A stretch of 64,000 nucleotides of DNA from Minisyncoccota bacterium (GCA_041674185.1 JBAYWE010000001.1:893-64892); one strand, 5' to 3'. Positions 7,279-38,077 are shown, numbered from the stretch's first letter. Translations and numbers: made by a program. The notes: a model not told the origin generated them from the letters alone.

Positions 7279-7366
7279 AAATTCACCATATAAGAAAAGA
7301 TAATTTCGTGCAAATGTAAAATGCCCTCCTCAAAGAGGAAGGCATAATATAAACAGAAAACAAAAA

Positions 7367-7792
7367 TTAAAACGGCAAATCATCTTGTGAATCGAGATGA
7401 TTCGTCCCAGAACGCCATGTGCTTTCTGGATGATTTCTTTTTATGGAACAGAAGTACATACCAAACGATTTTGGAGACCATATAAAACAGACAGCATAAG
7501 AACAAATATCGAATATAGCATCTGTTTGATAACCACTCATAATTTGAGGCCCTTTATGAGGAAGCGTTGTTTCGGAAAAAGGAATTTTTATCTTAGCACT
7601 ATATACAACACCATCCCCTTCAATAAGATAGTGGACAACCTCATCAATAAAATAAGAACAAATTCCTCGAAGATCTTGTTTTTTCTTCATAGATACATCA
7701 AGGAGTATAATTCTTTTTTGAAACCATACTTCTAGTGCCATGTGAGTAAGACGAACACAGAGCATTTTTTGTTTTGAAAGTACTACTTTCAT
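7367..7792 (-). CDS. Hypothetical protein with SSB-like acidic C-terminal tip (..DSQDDLPF)
   Basis: 141-aa ORF. Chosen over the overlapping + strand ORF 7397..7735 because its C-terminus mimics the SSB DDDIPF tail. No other motif recognised. Confidence 0.3.
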   Translation of the reverse strand: MKVVLSKQKMLCVRLTHMALEVWFQKRIILLDVSMKKKQDLRGICSYFIDEVVHYLIEGDGVVYSAKIKIPFSETTLPHKGPQIMSGYQTDAIFDICSYAVCFIWSPKSFGMYFCSIKRNHPESTWRSGTNHLDSQDDLPF

Positions 7793-8058
7793 AAGTCCTC
7801 CAATTACTGAAGGTTTATCTACAAGGATATCTCATAGATAATTATCATTTCGATAACAAAAATATCATAAGACACAACAAGATAGAAAGTCAAGAGACTC
7901 ACCATTTTTATCATTATAAAAATAAAAAACAACTCCTCAAGCTGTTTTTTATTTTTACTCTCAATACCATATACTAATTCTATCTATCCTGATACAAGGT
8001 CGGGACTCTCGCTCATCAGTCTCTTTCAAAAGAGTATTGAAGCTATCCACGAAATTAT

Positions 8059-8625
8059 CTATTTCTGCACCCGTTCTACATATTCCCCTGTTTCCGTATT
8101 CACGCGTATCATATCTCCCTCATTCACAAACATCGGCGTATTAACCGTTGCACCCGTTTCCAAAGTGACTAGTTTATTCCCTCCTTGCGCAGTATTTCCC
8201 TTTATCGCTGGAGGCGCTTCGGTCACCAAAAATTCCATTTTAATAGGGAGCTGAACAGTAATAATCCTTTCTCCAAATTTCACCGTCGTTACTTCGCTAT
8301 TCGGTTTCAAAAATTGAGCAGAAACTCCTAAATCAGATTCGGAAAGCATAAATCTATTCTTTGGGTTTCCTTTTTCGCAAAACCAAAATTCTCCCTTTCC
8401 TTTATATAAGAAGGATGAAGGCACACGATCCAATTCAGCTTCTTCAAATTCATCACTTGATTGAAATGATGTTTCTTTTACCTTACCACTTGCCAACTCA
8501 CGCATTTTTACTTTCATAACTGGTTTGCGTTGTTGCATACGCAAAAAATCCGCTGATAAAATTTCGTATGCAGATCCTTCATACACAATCACGTGTCCTT
8601 TTCGTACTTCATTATATGCTAACAT
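8059..8625 (-). CDS. efp: Elongation factor P
   Basis: 188 aa. MLAYNEVRKGHVIVYEGSAYEIL... KOW-like N-domain and two OB domains, typical EF-P architecture. Confidence 0.9.
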   Translation of the reverse strand: MLAYNEVRKGHVIVYEGSAYEILSADFLRMQQRKPVMKVKMRELASGKVKETSFQSSDEFEEAELDRVPSSFLYKGKGEFWFCEKGNPKNRFMLSESDLGVSAQFLKPNSEVTTVKFGERIITVQLPIKMEFLVTEAPPAIKGNTAQGGNKLVTLETGATVNTPMFVNEGDMIRVNTETGEYVERVQK

Positions 8626-8643: not shown

Positions 8644-10215
8644 TTATTCTTGAGTTTCTTCTTCTGAGGTTTTAATTTCAGGAGATGGATCTATATGTGA
8701 ATCATGAGACTTTTGAAGAGAACCTCGAATTAAATCCTTTAATGCGTCCACATTCATTCGTTCTTCGATAGGCTTTCGCTCCCGTGGTGCCGACGAGACA
8801 TGACCATGGTCTCGTTTTTTCTGTATATCAGAAGACACATCTTTCTTAAGCACTTCGTGTAACGAACGTTCATCTCGACGAGATACCATTTCTCCCGCCT
8901 TATCTCCTACAGAGCCATAATAATCAGTACGAATCTTTTCGTCAACTCGTTCTTTAGAAATAGAGTATTTTGAACGTGACGATTGTAAAATAGCATCAAA
9001 AAGTGAGGGTGCGGGCAGTGGAGGTGGAGGAAGGGTTTTTGCAGAAAAAGGACGCGACGAAACACCATCTACCATAATACGCGCATAAATATGTGCGTTT
9101 GGTAAATTTACAAAATCACTTGCCAAAAATTCTTCAAAAAATTCTTTCTCCAAAAATTCTGCGTCATCCGCTCCCACCCGAAATGAAATCATAGTTCCCA
9201 CGTTTCCAAAAATAGCATCGCGCACTTTCGTATTTTTATCCTGTTCTAATTGAGCGATGTATTGATGCGCCACAATAAGAGAAAGACGATATTTACGAGC
9301 CTCAGAAAGAATTGTCGCGAATGATTCAGTTGCAAAGTTCTGAAATTCATCAACATAGAGAAAGAAATCCTTACGTTCCGCCATGGGAATATCTACACGA
9401 GACATAGCAGCTAACTGCAATTTCGTAATCAACATAGCTCCCAATAAATTAGAATTATCTTCTCCAATTTTTCCTTTAGACAAATTGATAATAATAATTT
9501 TTCCTTCATCCATTGCTTGCCGAAAATCAAAGGAAGATTTTACCTGTCCAACAATACTACGAATTAACGGGTTGGTAACAAATTGTCCAATCTTGTTTTG
9601 AATAGCGGCAACTCCTTCTGTTTCCAACTTCTGCGTATATTTTGCAAACTCATCAACCCAAAACGAACGGACGCTCGGATCTTGCAGATCATTCACAATT
9701 TTACGACGAAATTCTTTATCAGAATACATCTTCATAACCCCCAGTAACGTTGACCCAGGATATTCAAGGAGTGCCAACAAGGTATTATTGAGAATATATT
9801 CCATACGCGCAGACCATGCATCTGGCCATATTTTTTTAAAAACCGACATAAGCCCCGATGCCACCAAATGACGCATATCAAAATCAACCCGTTCTAGAGG
9901 ATTAAACGCAACAGGAAAATTAATATCTGCGGGGTTTATATAAATAACATCATCAACTCGATCTTCAGGAATAAAATGTAAAATTTCTTCAGCTGTTTCT
10001 CCATGAGGATCCACAAAACAGACACCGTGTCCCGCCTTCACATCAGAAATAACCATGTTTAAAAGAAGGGTGCTTTTCCCAGTACCTGATTTTCCAATAA
10101 TATACGTATGCTGACGACGATCTGCTAGTTTGATGCCAAACGTACGCTCTTGATTACGAAAATTAGTTTTTCCTAAATATAATATAGAATCTGCCATAAT
10201 AGTTTTCTCATTCAA
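8644..10215 (-). CDS. HerA/FtsK/VirD4-superfamily P-loop ATPase (DUF87 / T4SS coupling-protein-like), soluble
   Basis: Walker A IIGKSGTGKSTLL, then FVDPHGE (HerA/TraG-type motif), Walker B FFLYVDEFQNF, and a C-terminal Pro-rich/charged tail (LPPPPLPAPS...). No N-terminal TM segment. Confidence 0.6.
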   Translation of the reverse strand: MNEKTIMADSILYLGKTNFRNQERTFGIKLADRRQHTYIIGKSGTGKSTLLLNMVISDVKAGHGVCFVDPHGETAEEILHFIPEDRVDDVIYINPADINFPVAFNPLERVDFDMRHLVASGLMSVFKKIWPDAWSARMEYILNNTLLALLEYPGSTLLGVMKMYSDKEFRRKIVNDLQDPSVRSFWVDEFAKYTQKLETEGVAAIQNKIGQFVTNPLIRSIVGQVKSSFDFRQAMDEGKIIIINLSKGKIGEDNSNLLGAMLITKLQLAAMSRVDIPMAERKDFFLYVDEFQNFATESFATILSEARKYRLSLIVAHQYIAQLEQDKNTKVRDAIFGNVGTMISFRVGADDAEFLEKEFFEEFLASDFVNLPNAHIYARIMVDGVSSRPFSAKTLPPPPLPAPSLFDAILQSSRSKYSISKERVDEKIRTDYYGSVGDKAGEMVSRRDERSLHEVLKKDVSSDIQKKRDHGHVSSAPRERKPIEERMNVDALKDLIRGSLQKSHDSHIDPSPEIKTSEEETQE

Positions 10216-10248
10216 AATATATTATCCACACGGATGAAATATGTAAAA

Positions 10249-11484
10249 TTATTCAAGGGGTAAATTGGGAGGAGGACTACCGCGACGAGAATCAATTTTT
10301 TGCAAACGGGGTGCACGCGTTACATTCGCAGGAGCATGAAATAAAGTAGCAAGTTCTTCAGTATTTAACACAGGAAGTTTTTCATCAGCCGTTCTATTAG
10401 ACATACCAAAATAACGAGCAACATATGAATCATAAATCATACGCTTTTTTGAAAGAACGACTGATTTTTTATACCAAGGAAAAATTTTTCCCGGAATCCC
10501 CGCATAGAACGGCATAGAGGTAGGTTTTAATGCATTCATGGTTTGCGTATTAAATTGTTGAAATGCAGCCATAACAGTTCCCCAATTTTGACCATCAAAG
10601 GTATCTTTCTTATCAATATAAATAAAACGCATGGTCATTTCGAATATATGCTTCGAAACTTTATTCTCTACAGCTTTAATAATATCTTTCGTATTAGCAG
10701 AAACACCAGACATATTTAATATCCCCGCCTCATTTGCTTTCACCCCCTTTTTTTCTAATAATTCTTTTACTTCCTTTTCTGCTTCTTTTGCGATATCTAC
10801 GCCCGTTGGCTTTCCCGTAGGACTAACAAGAAGTTGAATCCAAATTTGTTCTTCTCCTTTTAATTTAGACATAATTTCAAATAACGGAGAAAGTGGGTCT
10901 ATTCCTTTTTCGTTCTTCATATCATTTCGCTCTTCAAAAAAATCATACGTACGAATGGGATAGGGATTTGCTTTTGCTAATTCAAACGCTGCGCCAAATA
11001 TATCATACGCATCATTCGGAAGAAGAGAGGGCATTTCCGCGGTATAGTCGGTCCCTGGAACAATTTCGGCCTCTGGGTATTGGGCATATAAAGCGGCTTC
11101 AACCATATTACGACGTGCGGTAGGAAGTCGTATAAAAAAATGAATACCATCAGCACGTCCTACGATTTCAAAAGAAATCCAGAGTTCAACTTTTCCATCT
11201 AAATATTTATCAAATGATTTAATACCAAACGAATAAATACCATAGAGCGTGGTAAATACATGTTCCATGGACTTTGGGGTGCGTACGTTATCAGCAGGAA
11301 ACCGTATCTCAAGCATTTCCCATTTTACATTCTTTAAAAATTCTCCTCGAATATAAAACAAGCGCACTTTCCAAAAAAGCGCAATAAAAAATACGGGAAC
11401 CATAAACCACGCAACCGTGGAAAGGGTCTGATTCAGACTCGAAAATGCAATTTGTATAAAGTCCACCATATCCGTATGAGACAT
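10249..11484 (-). CDS. Hypothetical single-pass membrane protein, ATPase partner
   Basis: 411 aa. N-terminal TM helix (VAWFMVPVFFIALFW) followed by a large soluble domain. 34 nt upstream of, and co-oriented with, the ATPase gene. Confidence 0.45.
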   Translation of the reverse strand: MSHTDMVDFIQIAFSSLNQTLSTVAWFMVPVFFIALFWKVRLFYIRGEFLKNVKWEMLEIRFPADNVRTPKSMEHVFTTLYGIYSFGIKSFDKYLDGKVELWISFEIVGRADGIHFFIRLPTARRNMVEAALYAQYPEAEIVPGTDYTAEMPSLLPNDAYDIFGAAFELAKANPYPIRTYDFFEERNDMKNEKGIDPLSPLFEIMSKLKGEEQIWIQLLVSPTGKPTGVDIAKEAEKEVKELLEKKGVKANEAGILNMSGVSANTKDIIKAVENKVSKHIFEMTMRFIYIDKKDTFDGQNWGTVMAAFQQFNTQTMNALKPTSMPFYAGIPGKIFPWYKKSVVLSKKRMIYDSYVARYFGMSNRTADEKLPVLNTEELATLFHAPANVTRAPRLQKIDSRRGSPPPNLPLE

Positions 11485-11577
11485 CAGTTTCGTAATAGAA
11501 ATATAGTACCATTTTTATAACAAAATAACACCCCCACACAAGATAAGAGAGTACGATCAGAAAAAAAGTACTTGTTA

Positions 11578-12606
11578 TTAAGCAAGGTGGTAATTACCGT
11601 TATTCTTTTTAAAGAATTTCTTGTTCTGTAAATTAAGAAAGATGGTATTGTGTTTTAACACCCGTTCACGTGAAACTAATTGTACTAATTGATCAAGTCC
11701 CATGGGACCGTTCTTTTTCAATAAACGAAGAAGAACATCTCTGGTGTTTCCTGGTTCAATACCAAATTCACGCAATGAATATAACCCACGTCCCACAAGA
11801 ACAAAACGATCACTCGCCTTAATAAGTTCATTATGAACTGTTTGTGGGTGAGCCTTCTTTGTATCAAATTTTACCTTATTAATTTCTTGCGCAATATCAC
11901 GAAAATGCATAGGAGCTTTTTGCTTCTTAAGCACGAGATATGCTTTATCACGAATCGTGCTGGGAGTTATTTCTGGCCACTTTGCTAATCCAAAATTACC
12001 ATAGGCATTCACACGAAATTCTTTAGAGTTAGAGATGAAGTTCAATGCAACAAATTCTTTCACGTTATGTTGTTTCGTGACTTGAGCAAATAACATATCA
12101 AATTCATTCCGTTCAATAAGAGCTTCCTTTTTATTTTTAAGAAAAAGAGCCATCTTCTGTATAAATGTTTTTACCTCTTTAAGAGCAGTTGTATCAGTAT
12201 ACCAAAACGCACACAACTCATCTGTCTCAGAAAAATAGAGCGGTGATTTAAAAAGAGAGAAAAGCAAGGTAAGATATGAACCACTTATTGTTTTATCTTT
12301 CAATACCACTTTTAAATCTTCAACCAAAAAATCAGCGCGACGAACACCTCCGAGTGAAACGACATGATTAACAGCCTCTTTCAGAATCCCCTGAATTTCT
12401 TTTTGTTCTTGCGCCACTTTTAAAAGAGTGCGTAATGAAGCAGCCTCAATCTGACGAACGCGTTCACGCGTAATACCATATTTTTCTCCGAGATACGCAA
12501 GCGTACGCACTTGATTTGATCCCAATCCAAATCGTTGTACGATAATATCTTTTTGACGCTTCGGAAGCGTTGCAACAATAGCATCTAATAAAACTTTAAG
12601 TGTCAT
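11578..12606 (-). CDS. Sigma-70 region-4-like HTH protein with unknown C-terminal domain
   Basis: N-terminus QKDIIVQRFGLGSNQVRTLAYLGEKYGITRERVRQIEAASLRTL matches the sigma-70 region 4 HTH. Regions 2/3 are absent and the remaining ~270 aa is uncharacterised. Confidence 0.5.
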   Translation of the reverse strand: MTLKVLLDAIVATLPKRQKDIIVQRFGLGSNQVRTLAYLGEKYGITRERVRQIEAASLRTLLKVAQEQKEIQGILKEAVNHVVSLGGVRRADFLVEDLKVVLKDKTISGSYLTLLFSLFKSPLYFSETDELCAFWYTDTTALKEVKTFIQKMALFLKNKKEALIERNEFDMLFAQVTKQHNVKEFVALNFISNSKEFRVNAYGNFGLAKWPEITPSTIRDKAYLVLKKQKAPMHFRDIAQEINKVKFDTKKAHPQTVHNELIKASDRFVLVGRGLYSLREFGIEPGNTRDVLLRLLKKNGPMGLDQLVQLVSRERVLKHNTIFLNLQNKKFFKKNNGNYHLA

Positions 12607-12692: not shown

Positions 12693-13607
12693 TTAATTCT
12701 TTATATCAAATTTATGCCAAAGAGTCAAGAGCGGACTCGCAAGAAAGATCGAGGAGTATGTTCCAAAGACGGTACCAATAAGTAAAACACCAGTAAATAC
12801 GCGCAAATTAGCGGGTCCAAAGATAATAAGGGCAACCAACATAAGAACGAGAGTGAGTGAGGTATTAATAGAACGAGCCATTGTTTGTGTAATGCTTTCA
12901 TTAACCGTGTAATCAAAAGACTGTTTTGTTGAACGATGTATTAATAGATTTTCACGAATACGATCAAACACAACGATAGTATCGTGAACAGAAAATCCTA
13001 TAATAACCAGTACCGCGACCACAAAGTTTGTATCTATTTCTATACCATGTGTCTTTCCTAGAACAGCTAATATTCCCACAGGAATAATTGCATCGTGAAA
13101 CAAAGCAATGAGTGTTGCAATACCATATTTCCAAGAAGGAACAGGGTGTGAAACTTTACGAAATGAGAAAGTAATATAAAGAGAAATTCCTAAGAGGACA
13201 AGAATAGATGCCCATATAGCCCGCGAACGCAATTGATCTCCTATGGTAGGACCAATAGATTGATATTGTATCTCCTCAACAGAAGAGAATTTATTTTTTA
13301 AGATTTCTAAAAGTCGTGCATGATCTACTTCACTCAAGGTCTGTGTTTTTATTAAGAAAGAGTCAGAGGTTAATTCTTTATATACAACAGGACTCTCTAC
13401 TCCCCCAACAGTGACAAGAACATCTTGAATATTTTGTTCCTGTACTATTTGTGTCTGATCACTGACACGCACTTGCCAAAGTGTTCCTCCCGTAAAATCA
13501 ATTGAGGGGCGAAATCCAAAAATAATAAGACACGCAATACTCGCAACAACTAACACAGCTGATACAGAAATAAATATTCCCCGATATTTTATAATATTCA
13601 TACCCAA
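12693..13607 (-). CDS. secF: Protein translocase subunit SecF
   Basis: 304 aa, 6-TM SecDF-type architecture, immediately downstream of secD. Confidence 0.85.
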   Translation of the reverse strand: MGMNIIKYRGIFISVSAVLVVASIACLIIFGFRPSIDFTGGTLWQVRVSDQTQIVQEQNIQDVLVTVGGVESPVVYKELTSDSFLIKTQTLSEVDHARLLEILKNKFSSVEEIQYQSIGPTIGDQLRSRAIWASILVLLGISLYITFSFRKVSHPVPSWKYGIATLIALFHDAIIPVGILAVLGKTHGIEIDTNFVVAVLVIIGFSVHDTIVVFDRIRENLLIHRSTKQSFDYTVNESITQTMARSINTSLTLVLMLVALIIFGPANLRVFTGVLLIGTVFGTYSSIFLASPLLTLWHKFDIKN

Positions 13608-13618
13608 TTTTTATAGTA

Positions 13619-14884
13619 TTAAATTTTATTTTTATTTTGAATTATCGACTTCCCTGGGAAAATAATCATAAGTGCGCGGGTAACCGTAATTGCCGTAAAC
13701 ATACTCACCAATACACCGAGTAAAAGTGTGAGAGCTAGTCCCTTTACAAATCCAGAGGTGAGATTGAAAAGAATAAGTGTTGTAATAATAGTACTCACAT
13801 TCGAATCTCGAATAGCAGACCACGCTCGATGAAATCCTTCTCGAATTGCGGCTGTCTTTTCTAATCCTTTCTTCATTTCCTCTTTTGTGCGTTCAAATAT
13901 AAGAATATTTGCATCTACTGCCATACCAATAGAAAGAAGAAATCCCGCGATACCAGCCAATGACATAGTCACAAATAATTTAAAGATAATAAGAGAAAGA
14001 ACAATATATACCAACAAAGCGATACAGGCTAAAAATCCGCGTTGATGATAATACGATATCATGAACAACATAATAATAATGGTACCTATAAGTCCCGCAA
14101 ACAATGAGGCGTTCAATGAATGAGTACCTAAACTTGCTCCCACAGTTTGCTGATTCACCAAAGTAATAGGAGCAGGAAGAGCACCTGCATTTATATTTTG
14201 AGCAAGAGATTTCGCCTCATCGATAGTAAATTGACCGTTAATAACCGCGCTTCCAGACGGAATTTTTTCATTTACCACGGGAGCACTAATAAGAACATTA
14301 TCAACGAATATACCGATTTGCTTTCCCACATTCTGTTCTGTTAATTGTGCAAAGATATCTCCTCCCTCAGTCGTGAATTGCAATTGTACCTGTGGTTGTG
14401 AGGTCTGTTGACCAAAAGAAAGAGAGGCGGATTTAATATATTGTCCTTTTAACTCAGTCGGAATCCACGCAGGAGTTCCTGAAGCATCAAGAGCACCCAC
14501 CGTTCTAAAATCTAAGAACGGAGTTTGTCCAATTTGTTGGATGGCCTCATTCACATCTGATATACCCGCTAAATCAACCATAAGAAATTGCTCCCCCGCT
14601 GATTGTGAAATAGCAATTTGTGGTTCTTTTACTCCAAAGGTATTCACTCGTTTTTCAATCACATCACGAAGACCCGCCAAAGTATCAGAGATTTGAGCTT
14701 GTTCAATTGCGGAAGTGTCTATTTTATAGGTGAGATGAGACCCTCCGACTAAATCTAATCCCAATTTCCAAGGAGACCATGAACTTATAGATGCTGACCA
14801 TGGTGCGGGATATACAAAAAATACTCCTGCGATAGTTATTGCGAAGACGACCGCTAACAAAAGTGACGCTTTTCGTTTATTCAT
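13619..14884 (-). CDS. secD: Protein translocase subunit SecD
   Basis: 421 aa. N-terminal TM, periplasmic domain and C-terminal 5-TM SecD block (GLALTLLLGVLVSMFTAITVTR). Confidence 0.85.
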   Translation of the reverse strand: MNKRKASLLLAVVFAITIAGVFFVYPAPWSASISSWSPWKLGLDLVGGSHLTYKIDTSAIEQAQISDTLAGLRDVIEKRVNTFGVKEPQIAISQSAGEQFLMVDLAGISDVNEAIQQIGQTPFLDFRTVGALDASGTPAWIPTELKGQYIKSASLSFGQQTSQPQVQLQFTTEGGDIFAQLTEQNVGKQIGIFVDNVLISAPVVNEKIPSGSAVINGQFTIDEAKSLAQNINAGALPAPITLVNQQTVGASLGTHSLNASLFAGLIGTIIIMLFMISYYHQRGFLACIALLVYIVLSLIIFKLFVTMSLAGIAGFLLSIGMAVDANILIFERTKEEMKKGLEKTAAIREGFHRAWSAIRDSNVSTIITTLILFNLTSGFVKGLALTLLLGVLVSMFTAITVTRALMIIFPGKSIIQNKNKI

Positions 14885-15046
14885 ATTAAAAATAACATAT
14901 CACAAAAAGCTGAAAAAGCAACAGATACAAAAAGAAAAAAGAGTGCGTAGGCACTCTTTCCTCTATAGTATCTTTGTTTCCTCACGAGACAAAGATTATA
15001 TGCACAGTATGAACTATTTTGTTTTTTTTCGCAAGAGATATCTCTT

Positions 15047-18000
15047 TTATTTTTTTCTTGCTCCCATCCATAAACGCTTCCCGTCTAATTTGGTATCTAT
15101 CTCTGCATCAAATTTTTCCATCTTTCCAATGGTAAGGACACGAGCCCCCACTTCCTTCTTAATAAATGCTTCGTGTATGCGTACCATTGCTTCAATATCC
15201 GAGGTACTTGAGAGTGCAAGAATAATACTATCCTTGGGTACGTATCCGGCATCTTGGCGTAATTCTTGTACTGCCCGAGTCAACTCACGCAATAATCCCT
15301 CCGTTTTTAACTCAGGAGTAATAGTAGTATCAAGAATAAACATCTCTCCATCAACAAGCTCTGAAGAGAAGGTAATTTCTTTTACATTCACTTCATCACG
15401 AATAATTTCAAGAATATCGGGAACAAAAGATCCTTTTGGTTTTTTACCTTGAAGAGTGAGTTTTGCAAGTGGTTGGCGTACTTTAATTTGTAATTCTGCT
15501 CGTTTTGCAAGAACACTACTCGCTATATCACGCGCCCACGACATAACCGATACTAATCCCTCATCAGAAGCTTTTATCTTAAATGTAGGAACAAGTTCTA
15601 AATGAACAGAATCCTTTTTTGAGAAACTATGATCTTTTTTAAGCGATTGATAAATACTCTCTGCAAAAAATGGAGTAAAGGGAGCAATTATTTTTGAAAA
15701 TTGAAGCAGTGTATAGGCTAAAACCTGAGAAGCACTTTGTAGATCTTTTATATTTTCTGGTTTTTGGAATCGACGACGTGAACGACGAATATACCATCGA
15801 GAAAGATCATCAATAAAAGATTCAATAGCAATAGTTGCCTTCGTAAGATCATACATATCCATGTTAGTAGTCACTTCACGCGTCATAAGAGCAAGACGCA
15901 CAAGAATCCATCTATCTAATACATACGGAGTAGAAGGCATATCAATAAGATTTCTTTTATCTAATCCATACATTTGCAAAAATGCAAACGAATTATAGAT
16001 AACCATAAGCGTACGACGAAATGCCTTTCCCACCTCCTCTTCATCAAAATTCTTTGGATCTCCTGGCGCATTGACGGTATAAAAATACCACCGAATAGAA
16101 TCCACTCCATATTTTTGTATTAAAGCCCACGGATCAACAATATTTCCTTTTGACTTAGACATTTTTTGTCCATGTTTATCATGAATAAGTCCCAAACAAA
16201 TAACATTTTTATACGGAGTAGGAAGATCTAATGCGGTCGCAACAGCAAGAAGCGTATAAAACCACCCTCGAGTTTGATCCACTGCTTCAGAAATATAATC
16301 AGCGGGATACAGTTCTGGTTTTGATATCTTCTGTGACTTTGAATTCTTTTGAGCAAAGGGAAAGTGTCCTTGTGCAAACGGCATGGATCCCGAATCAAAC
16401 CAAACGTCGGCAACTTCTTTTACTCGACGCATGGGCGCATGACATTTTTCACATGCAAAAGTAATCTCATCAATATACGGACGATGTAAATCCCCCAACC
16501 CCTGTTCATTTCGAGGAAAAGGAACAAAAGAAACATCCATACTCTGCGCAGTTTTTATAAAATCACCCCCTCTCTGTTTCTTATACGTAATGCTTTCTTC
16601 TTGACTCTTTCCCGAAAGAACTGACTCAAGCATCCATAATGGATACTCATGACTCACCACAAGAACATTTTTACCGGCATATTTCTTCTCAATATCTTTC
16701 ACAAAATCATACATACGTGCAGCAACAGCTATAAGCGCTTCTCCTTTTTCTGGGAATTTTAGAAATCGATCCTCGTAGGTAGGAAAGAGAGCATCATATC
16801 GATCAACCGACTGCCCCTCAAGTTCTCCTAGGTATATCTCCCGCAATCGTTTATCAAAAACTACTTTTGCTCCCGTGAACTGTGAGACAATTTCAGCAGT
16901 TTGATGAGTACGATAAAGATCAGAAGAAATAATAATATCAATATGCTTCTGTACAAGTTTCTGAGCAGTTCGCTTTACATCCCCTATTCCCTTTTTAGTA
17001 AGAGGAAATTGTACACTCTTTTTTACATCACCGCTAATAATGTGTTTCGTGTTATGGAGTGCTCCTCCATGACGCATCAGTATGAATCGAGTCATACTTT
17101 TAGGTTGTGTAGCAATTAATTCTTCTTTCGATCCCAAAACCTGAATGTGGGTACAGTGGGTGCATCGCCACACCGGGAGTGGAGTCCCCCAGTACCGTTC
17201 ACGAGAAAAATTCCAATCTTTTACCTCCTTGAGCCATTCTCCAAATCGCCCCTGCTTAATATGACTCGGAACCCAGTTCACAGACTCGTTTGAAGCAATA
17301 AGTTTCTTTTTCAGTTGAGTCATCTCCACAAACCATGAGGTGCGCGCATAATATAACAAGGGAGTTCCACAACGCCAACAATACGGATATTCATGTTCAT
17401 ATGGAACAGTAGATACGAGCCTCTTTTGTTTTTCAAGGTATTCAAAAATAATTTTCTCAGTTTCATTACTTTTCACAAACCGTCCTGCAAGATCAGGAAC
17501 ACCTTTTATAAATTTGCCCGCTTCATCTACGGTATGATACTGGGGTAATCCTATTTTTTTACCCAATGTATAGTCATCCTCTCCATACATAACTGCGGTA
17601 TGCACAACCCCTGTTCCATCAGTCGTAGTAACAAAATCAGCGCTATATACTTTATATGCGGTCTCTGATTTTTTGAATTCCGCAATATCAAACAAAGGTT
17701 CATATGAAAGACCCACAAGATTTTTTCCTAAAATATTCTTATGTATAGTTTCAATTTGTTCATGAGGAAACACAGCACGAACCAACTCTGACGCAATAAC
17801 ATATAATTCAGATTTTCCATCTACACGAATCACATCGTATGAAATATCCTCTCCCACAGCTAACGCAACATTTCCTGGAAGTGTCCACGGCGTTGTCGTC
17901 CACGAAAGAATATAGGTATTCTCTCCTATGTGAATTTGCTTGTTGTTTATTGCTTGTTGTTTGTTATTTACAAGAAGTTTAAACTTTATATATACCGATT

Positions 18001-18613
18001 TATCAGTCACTGTTTTATAACCCTGTGCGATTTCATGGGAAGAAAGAGCGGTTCCGCAACGAGGACACCACGGTACCACTTTATGTCCTTCATAAAGAAG
18101 CCCCTTGAGCGACAACTGTTTAATAATCCACCATAATGACTCTATATAGGTATTGTGATAGGTAACATACGGATCTTCCATATCTAACCAAAATCCAATA
18201 CGCTCAGTTAGTTTTTCAAACTCAGATTTATGCACCCCAGCCGATTCTCTGCACTTTTGATTAAAAGCAGAAATACCATACGCCTCAATATCTTTTTTAG
18301 AAGAAAGTTCTAATTGTTTTTCAACTTGTAATTCTACAGGAAGTCCATGAGTATCCCACCCAGCCTTACGGGGTACCACAAAACCTTGCATCGTTTTATA
18401 GCGGACAAAAACATCCTTAAAAACGCGCGCAAGAACATGGTGTATTCCCGGGCGTCCATTCGCCGTCGGAGGACCTTCCCAAAAATTAAACTGCTTTACT
18501 TTTTTTCCTTTTGCAGGAGTTATTGATTTTTTAAAAATCCCCCGCTCTTTCCAAAGTGCGAGTACTTTTTCCTCTATTTCAGGGAGGTTGAATGATTTGA
18601 TGTTTCGTAACAT
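15047..18613 (-). CDS. ileS: Isoleucine--tRNA ligase (type 2) with an inserted histidine-phosphatase (PGAM-like) domain
   Basis: Class I HIGH motif (PPTANGRPGIHHV), KMSKS (KMSKSKGN), CP1 editing region and C-terminal anticodon-binding region. Start placed at ATG 18613 (MLRNIKSFNLPEIEE), not the ORF-track 18784 whose first 57 codons are low-complexity. About 180 aa between VLGS..EEL and DLHRP carry the RHG...R...SHE histidine phosphatase motifs. Confidence 0.9.
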   Translation of the reverse strand: MLRNIKSFNLPEIEEKVLALWKERGIFKKSITPAKGKKVKQFNFWEGPPTANGRPGIHHVLARVFKDVFVRYKTMQGFVVPRKAGWDTHGLPVELQVEKQLELSSKKDIEAYGISAFNQKCRESAGVHKSEFEKLTERIGFWLDMEDPYVTYHNTYIESLWWIIKQLSLKGLLYEGHKVVPWCPRCGTALSSHEIAQGYKTVTDKSVYIKFKLLVNNKQQAINNKQIHIGENTYILSWTTTPWTLPGNVALAVGEDISYDVIRVDGKSELYVIASELVRAVFPHEQIETIHKNILGKNLVGLSYEPLFDIAEFKKSETAYKVYSADFVTTTDGTGVVHTAVMYGEDDYTLGKKIGLPQYHTVDEAGKFIKGVPDLAGRFVKSNETEKIIFEYLEKQKRLVSTVPYEHEYPYCWRCGTPLLYYARTSWFVEMTQLKKKLIASNESVNWVPSHIKQGRFGEWLKEVKDWNFSRERYWGTPLPVWRCTHCTHIQVLGSKEELIATQPKSMTRFILMRHGGALHNTKHIISGDVKKSVQFPLTKKGIGDVKRTAQKLVQKHIDIIISSDLYRTHQTAEIVSQFTGAKVVFDKRLREIYLGELEGQSVDRYDALFPTYEDRFLKFPEKGEALIAVAARMYDFVKDIEKKYAGKNVLVVSHEYPLWMLESVLSGKSQEESITYKKQRGGDFIKTAQSMDVSFVPFPRNEQGLGDLHRPYIDEITFACEKCHAPMRRVKEVADVWFDSGSMPFAQGHFPFAQKNSKSQKISKPELYPADYISEAVDQTRGWFYTLLAVATALDLPTPYKNVICLGLIHDKHGQKMSKSKGNIVDPWALIQKYGVDSIRWYFYTVNAPGDPKNFDEEEVGKAFRRTLMVIYNSFAFLQMYGLDKRNLIDMPSTPYVLDRWILVRLALMTREVTTNMDMYDLTKATIAIESFIDDLSRWYIRRSRRRFQKPENIKDLQSASQVLAYTLLQFSKIIAPFTPFFAESIYQSLKKDHSFSKKDSVHLELVPTFKIKASDEGLVSVMSWARDIASSVLAKRAELQIKVRQPLAKLTLQGKKPKGSFVPDILEIIRDEVNVKEITFSSELVDGEMFILDTTITPELKTEGLLRELTRAVQELRQDAGYVPKDSIILALSSTSDIEAMVRIHEAFIKKEVGARVLTIGKMEKFDAEIDTKLDGKRLWMGARKK

Positions 18614-18666
18614 ATAGAACTTCACTATACAAAAAAAAGGAGGAGAAGTGAAGTAAAATAAAAATA

Positions 18667-19749
18667 TTGACACATATAAATAAAAGATGTACGTTAAACA
18701 CACCAAAAAATAACGGAGGCACCTTGAAAATTTTAGTAGATGAAAAGAGAGCGGTTGAGGTCTTTTCAAAATTAGTAGAGGCATTTAAAAATAAACTGCC
18801 TCCCTATGATACTGCACCACTCCCTCAGATACTCACCCCCACACAGATACAAAAGAAATCCGCAGAACATGCACGATTTCTATTCTGTTGTTGTTACTAT
18901 ATGCGCGGAGGTATTCGAAGTGATACAGCTATGAAAAGTTTAGCGGTATTATACGAAAACCATCCTGAATATTTTGATTCAGCGTATGTCGCACAAGCAG
19001 ATGAAAAATCACTACTCCAGTCTTTAAAACAACATCTGCAGGAAGTGAAGCTGAATTATAACGCAAGTGTAATACCACAGTTTTGGATTGATAATTTCAA
19101 AAAAATCAATACATTTTGGGGTGATAATCCAGCACAACTCATTCAAGATGCGGATTATGAAGAAATCACAGAACGCATTATGAATAGCGGAAAAATAAAA
19201 TCAGAAAATCCACATGGATTCTTTGGTTTTAGAGAAAAAATGGTCAGTATGATCATTTATTTTCTCGTAGATGCGGAATTTATAGATCCTCTACATTTTC
19301 CTGTGCCCATTGATTTCCACGCATTGAGAATCATAACGGCACACGAAATTCTTGATACAGAAACAAATACCAAAACAAATATTCTTTCACCAGAATATTT
19401 ACAAGCGGCGCGAGATATATCAGTGAAATTCTGCTTAGAACACAATGAAAGCCCACTCGACTTATGTGGCGCATTGTGGCTTCTCTCACGTACGTGGTGT
19501 AGCCTTCACCCAGGAAATGCAAGTGAAGTTGGTATATATCACGGAAGGAAAACTCACATAGGAGTTTCAAAAAAAAGTAGGTGGACGCAGAAGAACGCAT
19601 TCACTTATGAGGCAACGTGTGGAAGATGTCCTATAGAAAAAACGTGTAAGTATCTCATACCAGCAGGATATTATTACCGACAAGGAAAGATAATTATCCG
19701 CGGAGAAAGAAATAACCATCCACAACTCAATCTCTTTTCAACAAAATAG
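18667..19749 (+). CDS. Hypothetical protein, possible HhH-GPD (endonuclease III-like) base-excision repair fold
   Basis: 360 aa. PVPIDFHALRI resembles the VDTHVxR catalytic segment of HhH-GPD glycosylases. Cys cluster near the C-terminus (CGRCPIEKTC). ORF-track start is TTG; start uncertain. Confidence 0.35.
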   Translation: MTHINKRCTLNTPKNNGGTLKILVDEKRAVEVFSKLVEAFKNKLPPYDTAPLPQILTPTQIQKKSAEHARFLFCCCYYMRGGIRSDTAMKSLAVLYENHPEYFDSAYVAQADEKSLLQSLKQHLQEVKLNYNASVIPQFWIDNFKKINTFWGDNPAQLIQDADYEEITERIMNSGKIKSENPHGFFGFREKMVSMIIYFLVDAEFIDPLHFPVPIDFHALRIITAHEILDTETNTKTNILSPEYLQAARDISVKFCLEHNESPLDLCGALWLLSRTWCSLHPGNASEVGIYHGRKTHIGVSKKSRWTQKNAFTYEATCGRCPIEKTCKYLIPAGYYYRQGKIIIRGERNNHPQLNLFSTK

Positions 19750-21673: not shown

Positions 21674-21710
21674 AACAAAAACACCCAACAAGTGGGTGTT
21701 TTTGTTTGGT
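21674..21710 (-). terminator. Perfect 16-bp stem hairpin immediately 3' of tmRNA
   Basis: ccaaacaaaaacaccc-aacaagt-gggtgtttttgtttgg, abutting the ssrA 3' end at 21713. Confidence 0.45.
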
Positions 21711-21712
21711 AG

Positions 21713-22037
21713 TGGAGGCGGGGAGATTGAACTCCCGTCCATAGATATCTTCAAAAACCGTCTACACGCTTAGTTGATAAACAACAATGATTTAGTTCTA
21801 TGTTTAACCATGATCTACGAACCACTCAACCATAGCGATTCTCATATATAACACCGGTAAAATCCCTATGAGAAATCGGGGACCGATGCCTTTCATAAAA
21901 GAAAGGATAACCCGTGTTCGTTCTTAGGCAAACGCGAGAGCCATAGGTTTGGCAATTATTGGTTTGATTGGTTTACAAGACAATCGGCTTGGCATGCAAG
22001 TTTTCAAAGGAGTACCTCTGTCAAAGCGTACGCCCCC
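21713..22037 (-). ncRNA. ssrA: tmRNA (SsrA), ~325 nt
   Basis: Minus-strand 5' end GGGGGCGUACGCUUUGACAGAGG...UUGCAUGCC (matches the conserved tmRNA GCAUGCC region). 3' end GGACGGGAGUUCAAUCUCCCCGCCUCCAC(U)A has a tRNA-like T-arm and an acceptor with G3-U. Internal tag ORF GCC AAA CCU AUG GCU CUC GCG UUU GCC UAA (AKPMALAFA*) at 21924-21953. smpB is immediately upstream on the same strand. Confidence 0.75.
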
Positions 22038-22064
22038 ATATATAATTCTCAATGTCCACAGTAT

Positions 22065-22526
22065 TTATCTGCTCTTAGTGAAACGATCTATATCACGTTT
22101 TGTTTCACGTTTTTTGATGGTTTCACGCTTATCACGCTGTTTTTTACCACGCGCTAATGCTACCTCAACTTTTATTCTACCACTTTTTTCACGTATCTGC
22201 AAGGGTATGAGTGAAAATCCCTTTTCGCGTGTTTTCTCAAGTAATTCCCCTATTTCCTTCTTGTGTAACAGTAGTTTACGAGCATGGAGCGGATCATATT
22301 CTGAAGTAGTATTTTTTTCTTGGTAGGGAGTAATATGCGCATTTACCAACCACGCCTCATCTCCATACACCTTTATATATGAACCAAGAAGAGACGCCTT
22401 ACCGGTACGTATGGACTTCACCTCTCCCCCAGACAATACTAACCCCGCCTGATACGTTTCAAGAATTTCATATTCCATGCGCGCCTTTCTATTCTGTATT
22501 GATTCCATAGAAGAAGTATATCTCAT
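22065..22526 (-). CDS. smpB: SsrA-binding protein SmpB
   Basis: IQNRKARMEYEILETYQAGLVLSGGEVKSIR...LLLHKKEIGEL, a canonical SmpB. Adjacent to ssrA. Confidence 0.85.
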   Translation of the reverse strand: MRYTSSMESIQNRKARMEYEILETYQAGLVLSGGEVKSIRTGKASLLGSYIKVYGDEAWLVNAHITPYQEKNTTSEYDPLHARKLLLHKKEIGELLEKTREKGFSLIPLQIREKSGRIKVEVALARGKKQRDKRETIKKRETKRDIDRFTKSR

Positions 22527-25123: not shown

Positions 25124-27703
25124 TTACTGAAACACAAAAGTTCCCTGTGCATCAATATCTACTTGTATCGTTGCTCCCCGATGGATTTCTCCTGATAATA
25201 TTTTCTGAGCAAATACCGCTTTGAGAGAATTATCAATAACCTTGCGAAGAGGACGCGCTCCAAACGAGGGATCATATCCTAATTCTGCAATACGATGTAC
25301 CGCTGCATCACTTATTTCCATTTGGATACCATTCGTTTCCTGCAATAACTTCTGTAATGTAGCAAGATTAAGTCGGGCAATTTGTTCTATATGTTCTTGA
25401 GCAAGAGGGCGAAACACAACGATATCAGAGAAACGATTTAAAAATTCAGGTTTAAATAATTCTGTTAATTTCTTCTTGAGTGTATCACCAAACTGAGAAA
25501 CATGCTCCCCTGCTTGAATACGCTCCTGAATAAATACTGAGTGTGCATTCGATGTTGCAATGATAATCGTATTTTGAAAATCAACCACCCGTCCGAGTGA
25601 ATCGGTTAAACGGCCATCGTCCAAGACCTGTAAGAATAAGTTTAAAATATCCGGATGGGCTTTTTCTAATTCATCAAGCAATACAAGACTATACGGATGT
25701 GCGAGTACTGCTTCAGTAAGCGAACCAGAAACACGACCATCAGGAGAACCAATGAATCGAGTGATGGATTCTTTTTGTTGATATTCAGACATATCAAAAC
25801 GCGCCATTAAGGAATCCGATCCAAAATTGATCTTTGCAAGTAATTTAGAGAGTTCAGTTTTACCAACTCCTGTGGGGCCGACAAACAAGAACGAAGCAAT
25901 AGGACCTCCGCTGCGAGAAAGCCCGCTTCTATATTGACGCAATGCTTGAGAAACAGCGGTTACTGCTTCTTCTTGATCAATAAAATGTTTGTGTATTTCA
26001 TCTTCTAAATGCAATAATTTTTCAGCCTCAATTCCAGAAACTGCATGAATAGGAATTTGGACCCGTCGTTCGACAGTCGCAATAACATCAGACCCCTTCA
26101 CGACTCGCTCTCCTCGTTGTAATATACCCGAAATAACTTCAGCTAGTAACTCTTGAGCACTCGAGGGTAATGGTTTCGCGTGAAGATATTTTGCAGCCAA
26201 TACCGCCGCTTGACGAATCGCAGAAAAATAAATAGTTACTTTGTGTTTTTTCTCCATCACCAACGCATCATAACTTAATAAACGTACCGTATCGGAGACC
26301 GATAATTCTTGTATACGAATCGATTGGAAGAGTCCTGAAATAGCGGTGTTTGATTGTATATATTCTTTTTCTTCGCGAGGATAGGTAGATCCAACCACAG
26401 GGAATATATTATTACGCAGAATAGGCATAAGTATATCTACAAGAAGAACGCCTCCTATTTGCGGTTGTGCAAGAACATGAACATCAGAAATGTATAATAT
26501 AATATTTCCTGCTCGTAGAATTTCATCAGCAACACGAGAAAGTCTCCCTGAAACATCTTCAGCAGAGGCCCCTGCAATTAATTGACTCAACGAAAGAGAA
26601 ACGACACGCCTATCAAAGAGCGATCCAGGCACTGAATCAGAAATAATCTCAAAGGCGAGGTGATACAACAATGATTCCTTCCCAACTCCCTGTTCTCCCA
26701 CAAGAAGTACATTACGATTTGTAGATCCAGACAACATATCAACCATGCGTCGATACTCATCTTCATGACCAATAAGAAACCCCTCTAACCCCATACGAGC
26801 ATACTCAGTAATATCTTCGGAAAATTCATCAAGGGTTGGGGTGGGTCGAGAGGTAAGAGTTCGATTGACTCTATGCGCATGAACACGAGATTGAGCCTGG
26901 GCAAATCCACTTAAAGAAGCGGGAATAGATGATCGTGATATAAAACCACCAAAAGCTACGGCCTCAGAAATATCAGATCCGGTAATATGAAAGAGGTCTA
27001 ATATTTTAGTGATGCGCGGATGAGAGATGTTCATTAAAGCGGCGAAAAAAGATTCTTCGTCTACGATAGGTTTACGCAACATACGGGCAATCTGAACAGC
27101 TTCTATACACACAACTCCAATACGGTCCGTAAGTTGTGCTCGATATTCGTGCGGTGCCATAGTAGAAGTAGGAGCCGACGCTTGTGGTGCGGTTTTTGTT
27201 TTTTCATATTCCTGAGAAAGTTCACGAATAAATTCATCAAAAGATATATCAAGTCGTTCAATAATAACACGGATAGGATGACGCGTTACGGCAAGTTGAT
27301 GAGCAAGCCAACACCATAAATCCCCCCCTCGTGTTTCAGTACGTTCAAGAGCAGAAAGCGTTAAGCGAAGTGTTTTTCTATTCATACAGAGAGCCACATT
27401 ATTTTGAGGCACTTGCCCCGCATATAATTCATCAAGGGTATAATGAGCTCGTCGTATATGCACAATATAATCAAGAAAGAAACAAAACAATAACATACCA
27501 AACCACTGAATACGAGAAACATCAGAAAGAAGAAATGCTATGGTTGCCCCCCACCACACAATAAGAAAAATACTCGAAATAATACGTACAAGAGAACGAG
27601 CCATGGGAGACAAAAGAAAAAGACGCCTATGAAAAGTAAACTGAGAGGGATCAATAAATGAAAATTGTTTTTTAGAAAAAATATGCATATCGAAATATAT
27701 CAC
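25124..27703 (-). CDS. Membrane-anchored Hsp100/Clp-family AAA+ protein (ClpC/ClpB-like) with degenerate D1 ATPase
   Basis: Two N-terminal TM helices. D1 Walker A GEQGVGKE (K-E instead of K-T/S) and Walker B LYISDVH (no DE). D2 is intact: GPTGVGKT, LLDELEKAH, sensor-2 GARPLRK. No long M-domain coiled coil and no IGF/LGF loop seen. Confidence 0.7.
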   Translation of the reverse strand: MIYFDMHIFSKKQFSFIDPSQFTFHRRLFLLSPMARSLVRIISSIFLIVWWGATIAFLLSDVSRIQWFGMLLFCFFLDYIVHIRRAHYTLDELYAGQVPQNNVALCMNRKTLRLTLSALERTETRGGDLWCWLAHQLAVTRHPIRVIIERLDISFDEFIRELSQEYEKTKTAPQASAPTSTMAPHEYRAQLTDRIGVVCIEAVQIARMLRKPIVDEESFFAALMNISHPRITKILDLFHITGSDISEAVAFGGFISRSSIPASLSGFAQAQSRVHAHRVNRTLTSRPTPTLDEFSEDITEYARMGLEGFLIGHEDEYRRMVDMLSGSTNRNVLLVGEQGVGKESLLYHLAFEIISDSVPGSLFDRRVVSLSLSQLIAGASAEDVSGRLSRVADEILRAGNIILYISDVHVLAQPQIGGVLLVDILMPILRNNIFPVVGSTYPREEKEYIQSNTAISGLFQSIRIQELSVSDTVRLLSYDALVMEKKHKVTIYFSAIRQAAVLAAKYLHAKPLPSSAQELLAEVISGILQRGERVVKGSDVIATVERRVQIPIHAVSGIEAEKLLHLEDEIHKHFIDQEEAVTAVSQALRQYRSGLSRSGGPIASFLFVGPTGVGKTELSKLLAKINFGSDSLMARFDMSEYQQKESITRFIGSPDGRVSGSLTEAVLAHPYSLVLLDELEKAHPDILNLFLQVLDDGRLTDSLGRVVDFQNTIIIATSNAHSVFIQERIQAGEHVSQFGDTLKKKLTELFKPEFLNRFSDIVVFRPLAQEHIEQIARLNLATLQKLLQETNGIQMEISDAAVHRIAELGYDPSFGARPLRKVIDNSLKAVFAQKILSGEIHRGATIQVDIDAQGTFVFQ

Positions 27704-33344: not shown

Positions 33345-33369
33345 GGAGCGCAAAACGCTCCATTTTTTT
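33345..33369. terminator. Bidirectional terminator
   Basis: ggagcg-caaaa-cgctcc + attttttt, between the converging genes. Confidence 0.5.
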
Positions 33370-34855: not shown

Positions 34856-34867
34856 ATATAAACCACA

Positions 34868-37091: not shown

Positions 37092-38058
37092 ATTTTTGAA
37101 TTATTGATTTGAAAATATTAAAAGATTCTGGAAAACGTATACGAAACGTATATAATCGAAATCTCCACAGAAGAGTCCTCTGAATAAATCTTAGAAGGCT
37201 TTCTATTACTAAGTATACACGAGTTCCAAAAAAAGAAATAAAGTAAAGTAATAACGAAAATATGGAAAACTTAACTCTAAGCGCTTTTTTAAAATAACAT
37301 CTTCCCATAGAAAGATCTCCGGTACGACTATAGAAATTTCCCAGACGAGAATAGAGTGAAACTGCGTCTTCCGGAAATAGAGTAGTATCGGAAAGATCAT
37401 TAAGTAGTGACTGAATACGTTGTATAAATATTTTATTGTGGATTAAATCAATGTGAGAATTTTGCTTTCGATGTCGATTATAAATAGTAAGTGGCTCAGT
37501 ATATATAGCTATATGTGTTTTCGTTTTTTTCTGTTGTGTATCTCGAATTAACAGTCCAATTTCATCAACACCATTCTGGTCTGCTTTAAAAAATTGACCA
37601 GACACAAGAACGTCCTTCTTCATCATAAGATTAAGCGGAACAAATGTCGCACAATCAATAAATTTTCTGGTATCTAAATCAAAAACCCAACTGAAACCAC
37701 TTAAAATAGTAATGTGTGGATGATCTTTAAAAAATTGTAGCTTCTTGGCAATATACTCGGGAAAGAAGAGATCGTCTTGATCTATAAACGCAATAAAATC
37801 CCCTCGCGCAATTTTGCACCCCTGCGTTCGAGGAATTGCAGGACCACCCATATTCGAATCTAAAAAAATGGTCTGGATCCGTTGATCAGTAAAAGATGAG
37901 ATAATATTTCTTGTTGTGTCAGATGAATTATCGTCAATAATAATAAGCTCAAAATTAGAAAAAGTTTGAGCAAGAACACTCCGAATAGTGCGGGCAACAG
38001 TACGCTCGCCATTATATGTGGGCAATATCACCGAAACAGTAGCATGTGAAGTTTCCAT
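37081..38058 (-). CDS. Glycosyltransferase family 2
   Basis: VSVILPTYNGERTVARTIRSVLAQTFSNFELIIIDDNSSD, GT2 DxD context. Confidence 0.75.
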   Translation of the reverse strand: METSHATVSVILPTYNGERTVARTIRSVLAQTFSNFELIIIDDNSSDTTRNIISSFTDQRIQTIFLDSNMGGPAIPRTQGCKIARGDFIAFIDQDDLFFPEYIAKKLQFFKDHPHITILSGFSWVFDLDTRKFIDCATFVPLNLMMKKDVLVSGQFFKADQNGVDEIGLLIRDTQQKKTKTHIAIYTEPLTIYNRHRKQNSHIDLIHNKIFIQRIQSLLNDLSDTTLFPEDAVSLYSRLGNFYSRTGDLSMGRCYFKKALRVKFSIFSLLLYFISFFGTRVYLVIESLLRFIQRTLLWRFRLYTFRIRFPESFNIFKSIIQKYEA

Positions 38059-38077
38059 AAAGAGTGTGTTGATTATA

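Follow-up and report, generated by a model that had tools for sequence, protein, structure and literature searches.

A three-gene module of Patescibacteria chromosomes that may encode a membrane-docked, two-partner coupling-protein motor

What kind of machine is encoded by three co-oriented genes lying between efp and secDF on a patescibacterial chromosome? The genes were found on the minus strand, at positions 8644-12606, of a 64,000-nt stretch of DNA (37% GC) from a Minisyncoccota bacterium (Patescibacteria, or candidate phyla radiation, CPR), here named the window. They encode a helix-turn-helix (HTH) protein, a membrane protein with the DUF8128 domain (the partner) and an ATPase (Table 1). 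An initial annotation had regarded them as a linked cluster around a HerA/VirD4-like ATPase. With a little better than even confidence, we favour the reading that the trio encodes a membrane-docked, two-partner motor of the type IV coupling protein (T4CP) kind, equipped with a nucleic-acid-binding adaptor or regulator and inherited vertically as a chromosomal module. The module belongs to Parcubacteria/Paceibacteria-type Patescibacteria, and its core is built on the 'orphan' T4CP of the phylum.

Three Pfam families of coupling proteins matched the ATPase above their gathering scores, namely T4SS-DNA_transf (3.4e-13, 49.7 bits, cutoff 20.1), TrwB_AAD_bind (1.8e-10, 40.7 bits, cutoff 20.5) and TraG-D_C (2.6e-8, 34.3 bits, cutoff 22). 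DUF87 scored 31.3 bits, below the T4CP matches, and FtsK_SpoIIIE matched the P-loop only (0.0092). The top NCBIfam families were all T4CP-like, every one far under its curated cutoff (conju_CD1115, 48 versus 250; SXT_TraD, 40.5 versus 366; TraD_Ftype, 21.9 versus 521), and the sequence relatives found in the PDB were TrwB and DotL only, whether the query was the single sequence or a 32-sequence profile. The hhalign comparison with TrwB of R388 covered 265 columns (aa 30-326 versus 119-394; Prob 93%, E 3.5e-7), while the T4CP TrsK of pGO1 was aligned over the whole domain with a lower probability than TrwB. The sequence alignments to TrwB_AAD_bind and TrwB traverse aa 100-230, and a helical insertion between Walker A and Walker B, as in the VirD4/TrwB family, is predicted. 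Judged by its sequence, the ATPase is a VirD4/TrwB-family, T4CP-like P-loop motor that falls in no named T4CP subfamily; NCBI names the family 'type IV secretory system conjugative DNA transfer family protein'.

Two other assignments were tried and rejected. As a VirB4-type motor, the protein should resemble TrwK of R388 or TrsE of pGO1, which matched the P-loop only and 112 N-terminal columns only, respectively, whereas TrwB and TrsK matched the full domain. As a HerA/DUF87 helicase, it is outscored by the T4CP profiles, has ~35 residues before Walker A and no N-terminal HAS-barrel, and lacks a nuclease neighbour. The VirD4 half of the initial assignment is thus retained, with TrwB as the reference, and the HerA half is dropped.

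The initial annotation had also considered HerA-type ATPases paired with an accessory protein as engines of defence. The trio could then be an anti-phage system based on a HerA/MADS-type ATPase, and indeed the PADLOC match of the ATPase to mad8 (5.2e-20) was the best single E-value of any library, with weak PADLOC matches to HerA, AbiO, Nhi and DndH, and the sigma region 4 domain of the HTH protein matched MzaA (1.4e-10 in PADLOC, 7.3e-14 in NCBIfam). However, MADS is an eight-gene operon (mad1-mad8) that includes a methyltransferase, and the other mad genes are absent here: the mad8-like ATPase was the only such match, the partner had no PADLOC match, and MzaA, the sole PADLOC match of the HTH protein, is not a mad gene and covers the shared region 4 only. 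No nuclease or methyltransferase gene lies nearby, the flanks are efp and secDF, and, unlike defence islands, the trio shows a core distribution, synteny and strong purifying selection across hundreds of species. We consider a defence role extremely improbable.

The motifs named in the initial annotation were all present in the ATPase, including Walker A (GKSGTGKST, aa 41-49), FVDPHGE (aa 67-73), Walker B (YVDEFQNF, aa 287-294) and a Pro-rich, charged tail (TLPPPPLPAPS at aa 394-404; the C-terminal 128 aa contain 23 K+R, 25 D+E and 10 P). In an alignment of 32 ATPase sequences (alignment A3), the catalytic core (aa 15-395) was nearly invariant. Beyond the core, a C-terminal extension and the short motif NVDALKDLIRGSL are conserved, the latter within a variable, charged, low-complexity tail; the extra length of long homologues consists of longer low-complexity tails only. 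Canonical T4CPs bind adaptors through their C-terminal tails, and by analogy the extension and NVDALKDLIRGSL may be an adaptor-binding site.

No membrane segment was detected in the ATPase (maximum Kyte-Doolittle value of 1.37 over 19 aa), in line with the initial description of a soluble protein. An NCBI protein of a 'Candidatus Paceibacterota' metagenome-assembled genome (MAG) matches the ATPase with 100% identity. In the ATPase, Walker A starts at aa 41, and the homologues begin at the same point. The true start is probably not the TTG but the ATG of Met7 (position 10197), giving 517 aa, because the NCBI protein P0121 and the N-termini of the homologues agree with it. The distance to the partner gene, initially given as 34 nt, is 33 nt from the TTG and would be 51 nt from the ATG.

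The open reading frames (ORFs) of the cluster and its Pfam-identified flanks were found where the initial annotation had placed them, in the minus-strand order ileS, secD, secF, the 342-aa, 411-aa and 523-aa genes, efp, a gap, a murC-like gene and mnmA. The segment past efp (7279-8058) contains only short overlapping ORFs on both strands. A terminator-like hairpin scan found weak hairpins between secD and efp (5-9 stem pairs each), and the sole strong one up to efp was in the gap between ileS and secD (14933-14964, minus strand, 14 stem pairs followed by a T-run). Since that strong hairpin sits upstream of secD, the secD-to-efp block may be one transcription unit; a promoter scan of the locus gave nothing above the shuffled expectation.

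The conservation of the arrangement was evaluated from two sides. In a scan of one genome per GTDB species, at least 569 genomes had a DUF8128 relative, and the best 80 were analysed as partner-anchored loci; a second, ATPase-anchored sample consisted of loci on metagenome contigs, 65 of them testable for DUF8128 and 53 for the HTH gene. In the partner-anchored loci the HTH gene was directly upstream on the same strand in 77 of the 80, and the remaining three were cut by contig ends, so that it was present in all 77 testable loci. The ATPase gene followed directly downstream, again on that strand, in 76/80; the four exceptions are genuine, and in all four the HTH gene stays beside the partner gene although the ATPase gene has moved away. 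The median distance between the partner stop and the ATPase start is 36 nt, with overlap in some pairs. A groundwater lineage, for which the gene calls were independent, has this trio between other flanks. The proposal of a linked module that recurs in other genomes therefore holds, in dozens of distant ones, and the linkage is asymmetric. Starting from the ATPase, DUF8128 was adjacent upstream in 42/65 loci and further upstream, non-adjacent, in 3/65, and the HTH gene was present in 33 of the 53 testable loci. Since adjacency drops from 76/80 in the partner-anchored sample to 42/65 here, the ATPase is the more widespread gene and the trio is the arrangement of a large clade.

The partner-less ATPases have no membrane domain, are as close to the window ATPase as the others (59% versus 60% identity) and have varied housekeeping neighbours. 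A divergent DUF8128 was sought upstream of two of them (L134 and L146), and the candidate was rejected: the upstream proteins with an N-terminal transmembrane segment are DUF4015 glycosidase-like. In two other loci without DUF8128 (L130, 464-5906; L150, 714-2441 and 8011-9762) the ATPase gene is flanked by tandem paralogues of ~570-620 aa, each starting with a CxxC...CPxC zinc-ribbon motif (NCQNCKQxFxIEPEDFxFYEK). One locus (L158, 4349-5968) carries a 523-aa DUF8128 variant straight after secF with no HTH gene between them, and is one of six such pairs considered below. Two contigs of MAG JBDRMC01 (L053 and L063) each contain the whole secDF-HTH-DUF8128-ATPase-efp block, which could reflect a strain mixture or a duplication.

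The flanking genes are less constant than the trio. In the partner-anchored loci secF was found in 56/80 and secD in 54/80, mostly directly upstream of the HTH gene, and efp was downstream in 35/80; ORF clustering over these loci revealed no further frequent neighbour. The position of secD-secF immediately before the HTH gene in about 55/80 loci, together with the lack of any secD-efp hairpin above nine stem pairs, would fit a DUF8128-ATPase pair that is an accessory of Sec-dependent export or a receptor for protein substrates, and some T4CPs do recruit protein substrates. Nevertheless, the trio stays intact when secDF is elsewhere or on the opposite strand, secF was upstream in only 20/42 ATPase-anchored loci, and the three products show no likeness to SecA, SecB or a chaperone, making this explanation of the position after secD-secF quite unlikely.

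No relaxase, integrase, type IV secretion system (T4SS) or nuclease genes were found within +/-8 kb in the 80 loci or among the window ORFs examined, so the usual partners of a canonical coupling protein are not near these genes. The ATPase family is typical of conjugative elements, and the locus could for this reason be the decayed remnant of an integrated conjugative element. Such a remnant is close to negligible as an explanation: integrase, relaxase, VirB4, VirB6 and a flanking tRNA are all missing, the GC content is uniform, the identical chromosomal neighbourhood recurs in many species, and the catalytic motifs are all invariant.

Median identities to the window proteins were 60% for the ATPase, 53% for SecD, 51% for elongation factor P (EF-P), 49% for SecF, 46% for MnmA, 38% for the HTH protein and 35% for DUF8128. 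The locus is core, non-mobile and not a defence locus, as indicated by the higher identity of the ATPase (60%) than of EF-P and SecD (51-53%), the flat GC content over the whole region, the absence of mobile or defence neighbours, and the absence of DUF8128 from viral contigs.

This conservation also suits a different function, in which the ATPase is a stand-alone housekeeping DNA translocase, analogous to FtsK or to soluble SftA, acting in chromosome segregation, resolution or repair and not in secretion. In that case DUF8128 would keep it close to the membrane or septum, and its loading on DNA, a task of the gamma domain in cis in FtsK, would fall to the winged-helix protein. In support, the ATPase exceeds EF-P and SecD in conservation, no relaxase is nearby, and the neighbouring genes are invariably of the housekeeping type, ftsZ among them in some loci. 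Moreover, T4CP homologues occur in 96% of Patescibacteria genomes versus 80% for VirB4 (PMC12102498), so that the ATPase occurs in many genomes devoid of a T4SS. Against this function, the profile matches are to T4CPs, with FtsK_SpoIIIE confined to the P-loop, titles of papers on Saccharibacterium TM7x mention an FtsK, and in Southlakia the homologue of the T4CP is reportedly non-essential (PMC12102498). A translocase of this kind is unlikely, yet it stays a serious alternative to the secretion-type motor.

How would a soluble coupling protein be held at the membrane? The partner gene is the obvious candidate. Clustering its homologues at 90% leaves 1,384 of them, and at 50% identity there are 3,358 clusters; PF26449 is annotated on almost every homologue listed, and gene calls and UniRef use the name 'DUF8128 domain-containing protein'. 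The partner itself had no significant match in local scans with Pfam, NCBIfam and PADLOC, and no mention of DUF8128 or PF26449 was found in the searched literature. An AlphaFold2 (AF2) model based on 45 sequences (predicted local distance difference test, pLDDT, 87.4; predicted template modelling score, pTM, 0.84) consists of a long N-terminal helix (aa 3-52), an alpha/beta body and a disordered C-terminal tail (aa 390-411, pLDDT <50). The single N-terminal transmembrane helix of the initial annotation lies within the modelled helix. K/R residues number zero in aa 1-22 and six in aa 46-70, and with no K/R before the helix and six after it the predicted topology places the N-terminus outside and the body in the cytoplasm. 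The most conserved parts are the motif NTEELATLxHxP and the PPxxLP tail, and the invariant or near-invariant columns of alignment A1 are E376, E377, L378, A379, T380, H383, P385, L394, P404, P405, L408 and P409.

A Foldseek search with the DUF8128 model ranked 14 TrwK chains first. Among the matches listed there was no other RecA-like ATPase, and the partner has no Walker motifs, suggesting that the match is to the N-terminal domain of VirB4; this domain assignment was not read from the alignment itself. The model thus points to a VirB4 N-terminal-domain fold for the DUF8128 body, tied to the membrane by one helix, which would be the first structural assignment for this family. A PDB profile search with DUF8128 gave a chance-level match only.

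The third protein was initially described as having an N-terminal sigma-70 region 4 HTH as its only recognisable part. The first statement is correct: phmmer against the PDB matched domain 4 of S. aureus SigA (4g6d_A, 2e-11), with TRERVRQIEA aligned to TRERIRQIEA in the recognition helix, and NCBIfam RpoD models matched at about 1e-12, over region 4 only. The second is not, as a HARE-HTH domain was also identified and is annotated, in precomputed assignments, on nearly all homologues. The AF2 model (pLDDT 92.9) contains four winged-helix-like modules after region 4, the third being HARE-HTH. Assignments as a sigma factor or as the delta subunit of RNA polymerase were rejected: Pfam and NCBIfam detected Sigma70_r4 only, with no region 2, leaving the protein without sigma regions 1-3; the acidic delta tail is missing; and the NCBIfam delta model TIGR04567 scored 29.3 versus a cutoff of 42.

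The domain content raises the alternative that the HTH gene stands outside the machine, as a Patescibacteria-specific RNA-polymerase-associated factor that merely shares a transcription unit with DUF8128 and the ATPase. Region 4 would bind the beta flap, and HARE-HTH would bind the core enzyme, as it does in the delta subunit. In favour of this alternative, each of the two recognisable domains is of a type known to bind RNA polymerase, a homologue is called 'DNA-directed RNA polymerase delta subunit' in one source, and six DUF8128-ATPase pairs have no HTH gene upstream. What speaks for membership in the module is the position beside the partner in every one of the testable partner-anchored loci, including the four with the ATPase elsewhere, and a linkage to the partner that is tighter than that of secDF to the HTH gene. 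A passenger role for the HTH gene is possible but less probable than a role in the machine, and it is kept, like the translocase, as a serious alternative.

The favoured reading, a two-partner T4CP motor at the membrane, can be put as a working model. The missing membrane anchor and docking ring of the T4CP would be contributed in trans by DUF8128, by analogy with TraI for TraJ of pIP501, and together they would form a hexameric translocation motor bound to the membrane. In the R388 T4SS structure, it is through the N-terminal domain of VirB4 that this ATPase is connected to VirB3/VirB8 at the inner membrane. The sigma-4/winged-helix protein would bind nucleic acid as a substrate adaptor or regulator, the roles that TrwA, TraM and PcfF play for canonical T4CPs, and it may contact the ATPase through the conserved C-terminal extension and NVDALKDLIRGSL. 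The substrate of such a motor would most likely be nucleic acid or nucleoprotein.

Several observations weigh against this model. In profile comparisons DUF8128 resembles none of TrwK, TrsE and TrsD (hhalign Prob <1%), so that its link to VirB4 is structural only, and no DUF8128-ATPase fusion was found among the top 150 and top 120 homologue matches. In 20 of the 65 ATPase-anchored loci (about 30%) there was no DUF8128 in the available flank, and because of these loci the ATPase may work without an adjacent partner; given the six DUF8128-ATPase pairs that lack the HTH gene, the HTH protein may not be obligatory either. Since sigma region 4 and HARE-HTH both bind RNA polymerase, sharing the operon could be all that links the HTH protein to the pair, its own role being that of a general transcription factor. 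Finally, in Southlakia the T4CP homologue is reportedly non-essential while its T4SS is essential (PMC12102498).

Table 1. Positions of the trio, its flanking genes and its sequence features in the window
Feature	Position	Strand	Description
ATPase gene	8644..10215	-	T4CP-type, no transmembrane domain; 523 aa from TTG
Partner gene, DUF8128 (PF26449)	10249..11484	-	411 aa, single-pass membrane protein
HTH gene	11578..12606	-	342 aa, sigma region 4 and four winged-helix-like modules
efp	8059-8625		Flank of the trio; Pfam
secF/secD	12693-14884		Flank of the trio; Pfam
ATPase Walker A, GKSGTGKST	10069..10095	-	G41, K42, G44 and K47 invariant in alignment A3
ATPase Walker B, YVDEFQNF	9334..9357	-	D289, E290, F291, Q292, N293 and F294 invariant in alignment A3
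ATPase conserved C-terminal extension, aa 413-457	8845..8979	-	SRxxYxxPRxxVExKI ... RRxERSLxEVLK; alignment A3, beyond the core
ATPase short motif NVDALKDLIRGSL, aa 488-500	8716..8754	-	Alignable in 32/32 sequences of alignment A3
DUF8128 transmembrane helix, aa ~20-45	11350..11427	-	Kyte-Doolittle 1.88; within the modelled helix
DUF8128 body, aa 53-389	10318..11328	-	Modelled VirB4 N-terminal-domain fold, predicted cytoplasmic
DUF8128 C-terminal motif NTEELATLFHAP, then disordered tail ...RGSPPPNLPLE	10252..10365	-	Alignment A1
HTH protein sigma-A-type region 4, aa 1-67	12406..12606	-	-35 recognition helix ITRERVRQIEA
HTH protein HARE-HTH winged helix, aa 217-281	11764..11958	-	Pfam PF05066, 1.1e-9, 39 bits (cutoff 25.9)

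Other genes of the window were recorded in passing. The isoleucyl-tRNA synthetase (15047-18784, minus strand, 1,245 aa) has an inserted histidine-phosphatase domain (PGAM-like, His_Phos_1, 1.6e-32, aa 568-730) located between both halves of its catalytic domain. An 859-aa ClpB/ClpC-like AAA+ protein (25124-27703, minus strand), of which Pfam sees the D2 module only, has hydrophobic membrane-like segments at its N-terminus (aa ~40-85), which is unusual for the family. The gene for tmRNA (21710-22526, minus strand, tag peptide AKPMALAFA) lies beside smpB, and an Rfam scan of the window found this tmRNA and one tRNA, nothing else. Two ORFs between 18667 and 20927, of 360 aa (plus strand) and 373 aa (minus strand), had no Pfam match at 1e-5, the second appearing ParB-like by eye. 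A long run of co-oriented ORFs on the minus strand (33368-46652) includes a 743-aa Wzy_C/O-antigen-ligase-like protein (44421-46652) and a membrane protein that is flippase-like by eye (33368-34855); a sugar-transferase-like ORF, also by eye, is found at 31306-32619 on the plus strand. Our guess is that the 33368-46652 region is a surface-polysaccharide locus.

The ATPase family itself was already known in the phylum. Quinonero-Coronel et al. 2025 (PMC12102498) reported 5,713 VirD4-type homologues, about two per genome, distributed over 2,918 of 3,035 Patescibacteria genomes, with VirB4 in 2,417 genomes and only 148 of the 5,713 near virB4; the authors state that exaptation of the T4CP homologues cannot be excluded, and describe no partner or HTH gene for them. 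The window ATPase is of the 'orphan' T4CP kind counted in that study. In the T4SS cluster of Southlakia, Wang et al. 2023 (PMC10633639) recognised neither a coupling protein nor a relaxase, and T4CPs without a transmembrane domain that rely on small membrane proteins, such as TraJ with TraI of pIP501, are a recognised subclass (PMC7434980). What is new with respect to the searched literature is the gene context, the DUF8128 fold and the two-partner model.

Patescibacteria represent a large share of bacterial diversity, are nucleotide-auxotrophic and live on other cells. The passage of macromolecules across their envelope is an open question, and the step at which they acquire host nucleic acid is unresolved (PMC11665869; bioRxiv 10.64898/2026.06.21.733656). 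One could therefore imagine the DUF8128-T4CP pair and the HTH protein as an inner-membrane motor for the uptake of host-derived nucleic acid, a doubtful extension of the model in which a chimeric engine, with a VirB4-type dock and a VirD4-type motor, would have been re-purposed from conjugation for feeding, and would act alone or plug into the relaxase-less patescibacterial T4SS. The present analysis gives the orphan ATPase a gene context, the HTH-DUF8128-T4CP trio of a large clade, and a testable motor model. If the model is true, it provides concrete targets for genetics and cryo-electron tomography in the few cultivable Patescibacteria.

The proteins of the trio can be compared with several known systems. 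The HTH protein shares with SigA a near-canonical region 4 in its first 67 aa, including the -35 recognition helix, and with the delta subunit the HARE-HTH domain at aa 217-281; without sigma regions 1-3 it is unable to act as a sigma factor, and unlike delta it has no acidic tail. The ATPase resembles VirD4, TrwB, TraD and DotL in its Walker A/B domain, in the predicted helical insertion and in being alignable to TrwB aa 119-394, and has a C-terminal extension, which TraD and DotL use for adaptor binding. It differs from these T4CPs in having no N-terminal transmembrane domain, in scoring far below the NCBIfam T4CP cutoffs, in its chromosomal housekeeping context with no relaxase or mating-pair genes nearby, and in its unusual conservation (60-70% identity across lineages).

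A closer arrangement is that of T4CPs without a transmembrane domain, TraJ/TraI of pIP501 and TrsK/TrsJ of pGO1, in which a membrane-protein gene likewise immediately precedes that of the soluble T4CP; the patescibacterial T4SS is a member of their monoderm lineage (MPF-FATA; PMC7434980, PMC12102498). The known partners, however, are small multi-helix proteins, whereas the partner here has 411 aa, one helix and a large cytoplasmic domain, DUF8128 has no similarity to TrsJ of pGO1, and the trio lies outside any tra operon, among housekeeping genes. EccE of mycobacterial type VII secretion, with two membrane helices, is much less similar to DUF8128 than VirB4 is, and no other type VII secretion genes are present here.

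TrsD of pGO1 is, like DUF8128, a protein in its own right; a remote resemblance to the VirB4 N-terminus has been described for it, and its gene precedes that of VirB4. Most patescibacterial TrsD homologues, however, adjoin virB4, and no virB4 is near the DUF8128 locus. DUF8128 also differs from VirB4 and TrsD in its lack of sequence-profile similarity, in having no ATPase domain in the chain and in its adjacent motor, which is of the VirD4 type. VirB3-VirB4 fusions combine a membrane segment with the VirB4 N-terminal domain, and the same layout is predicted for DUF8128. If the model is true, the trio would represent a new assembly of a T4SS-family motor out of VirB4-like and VirD4-like parts.

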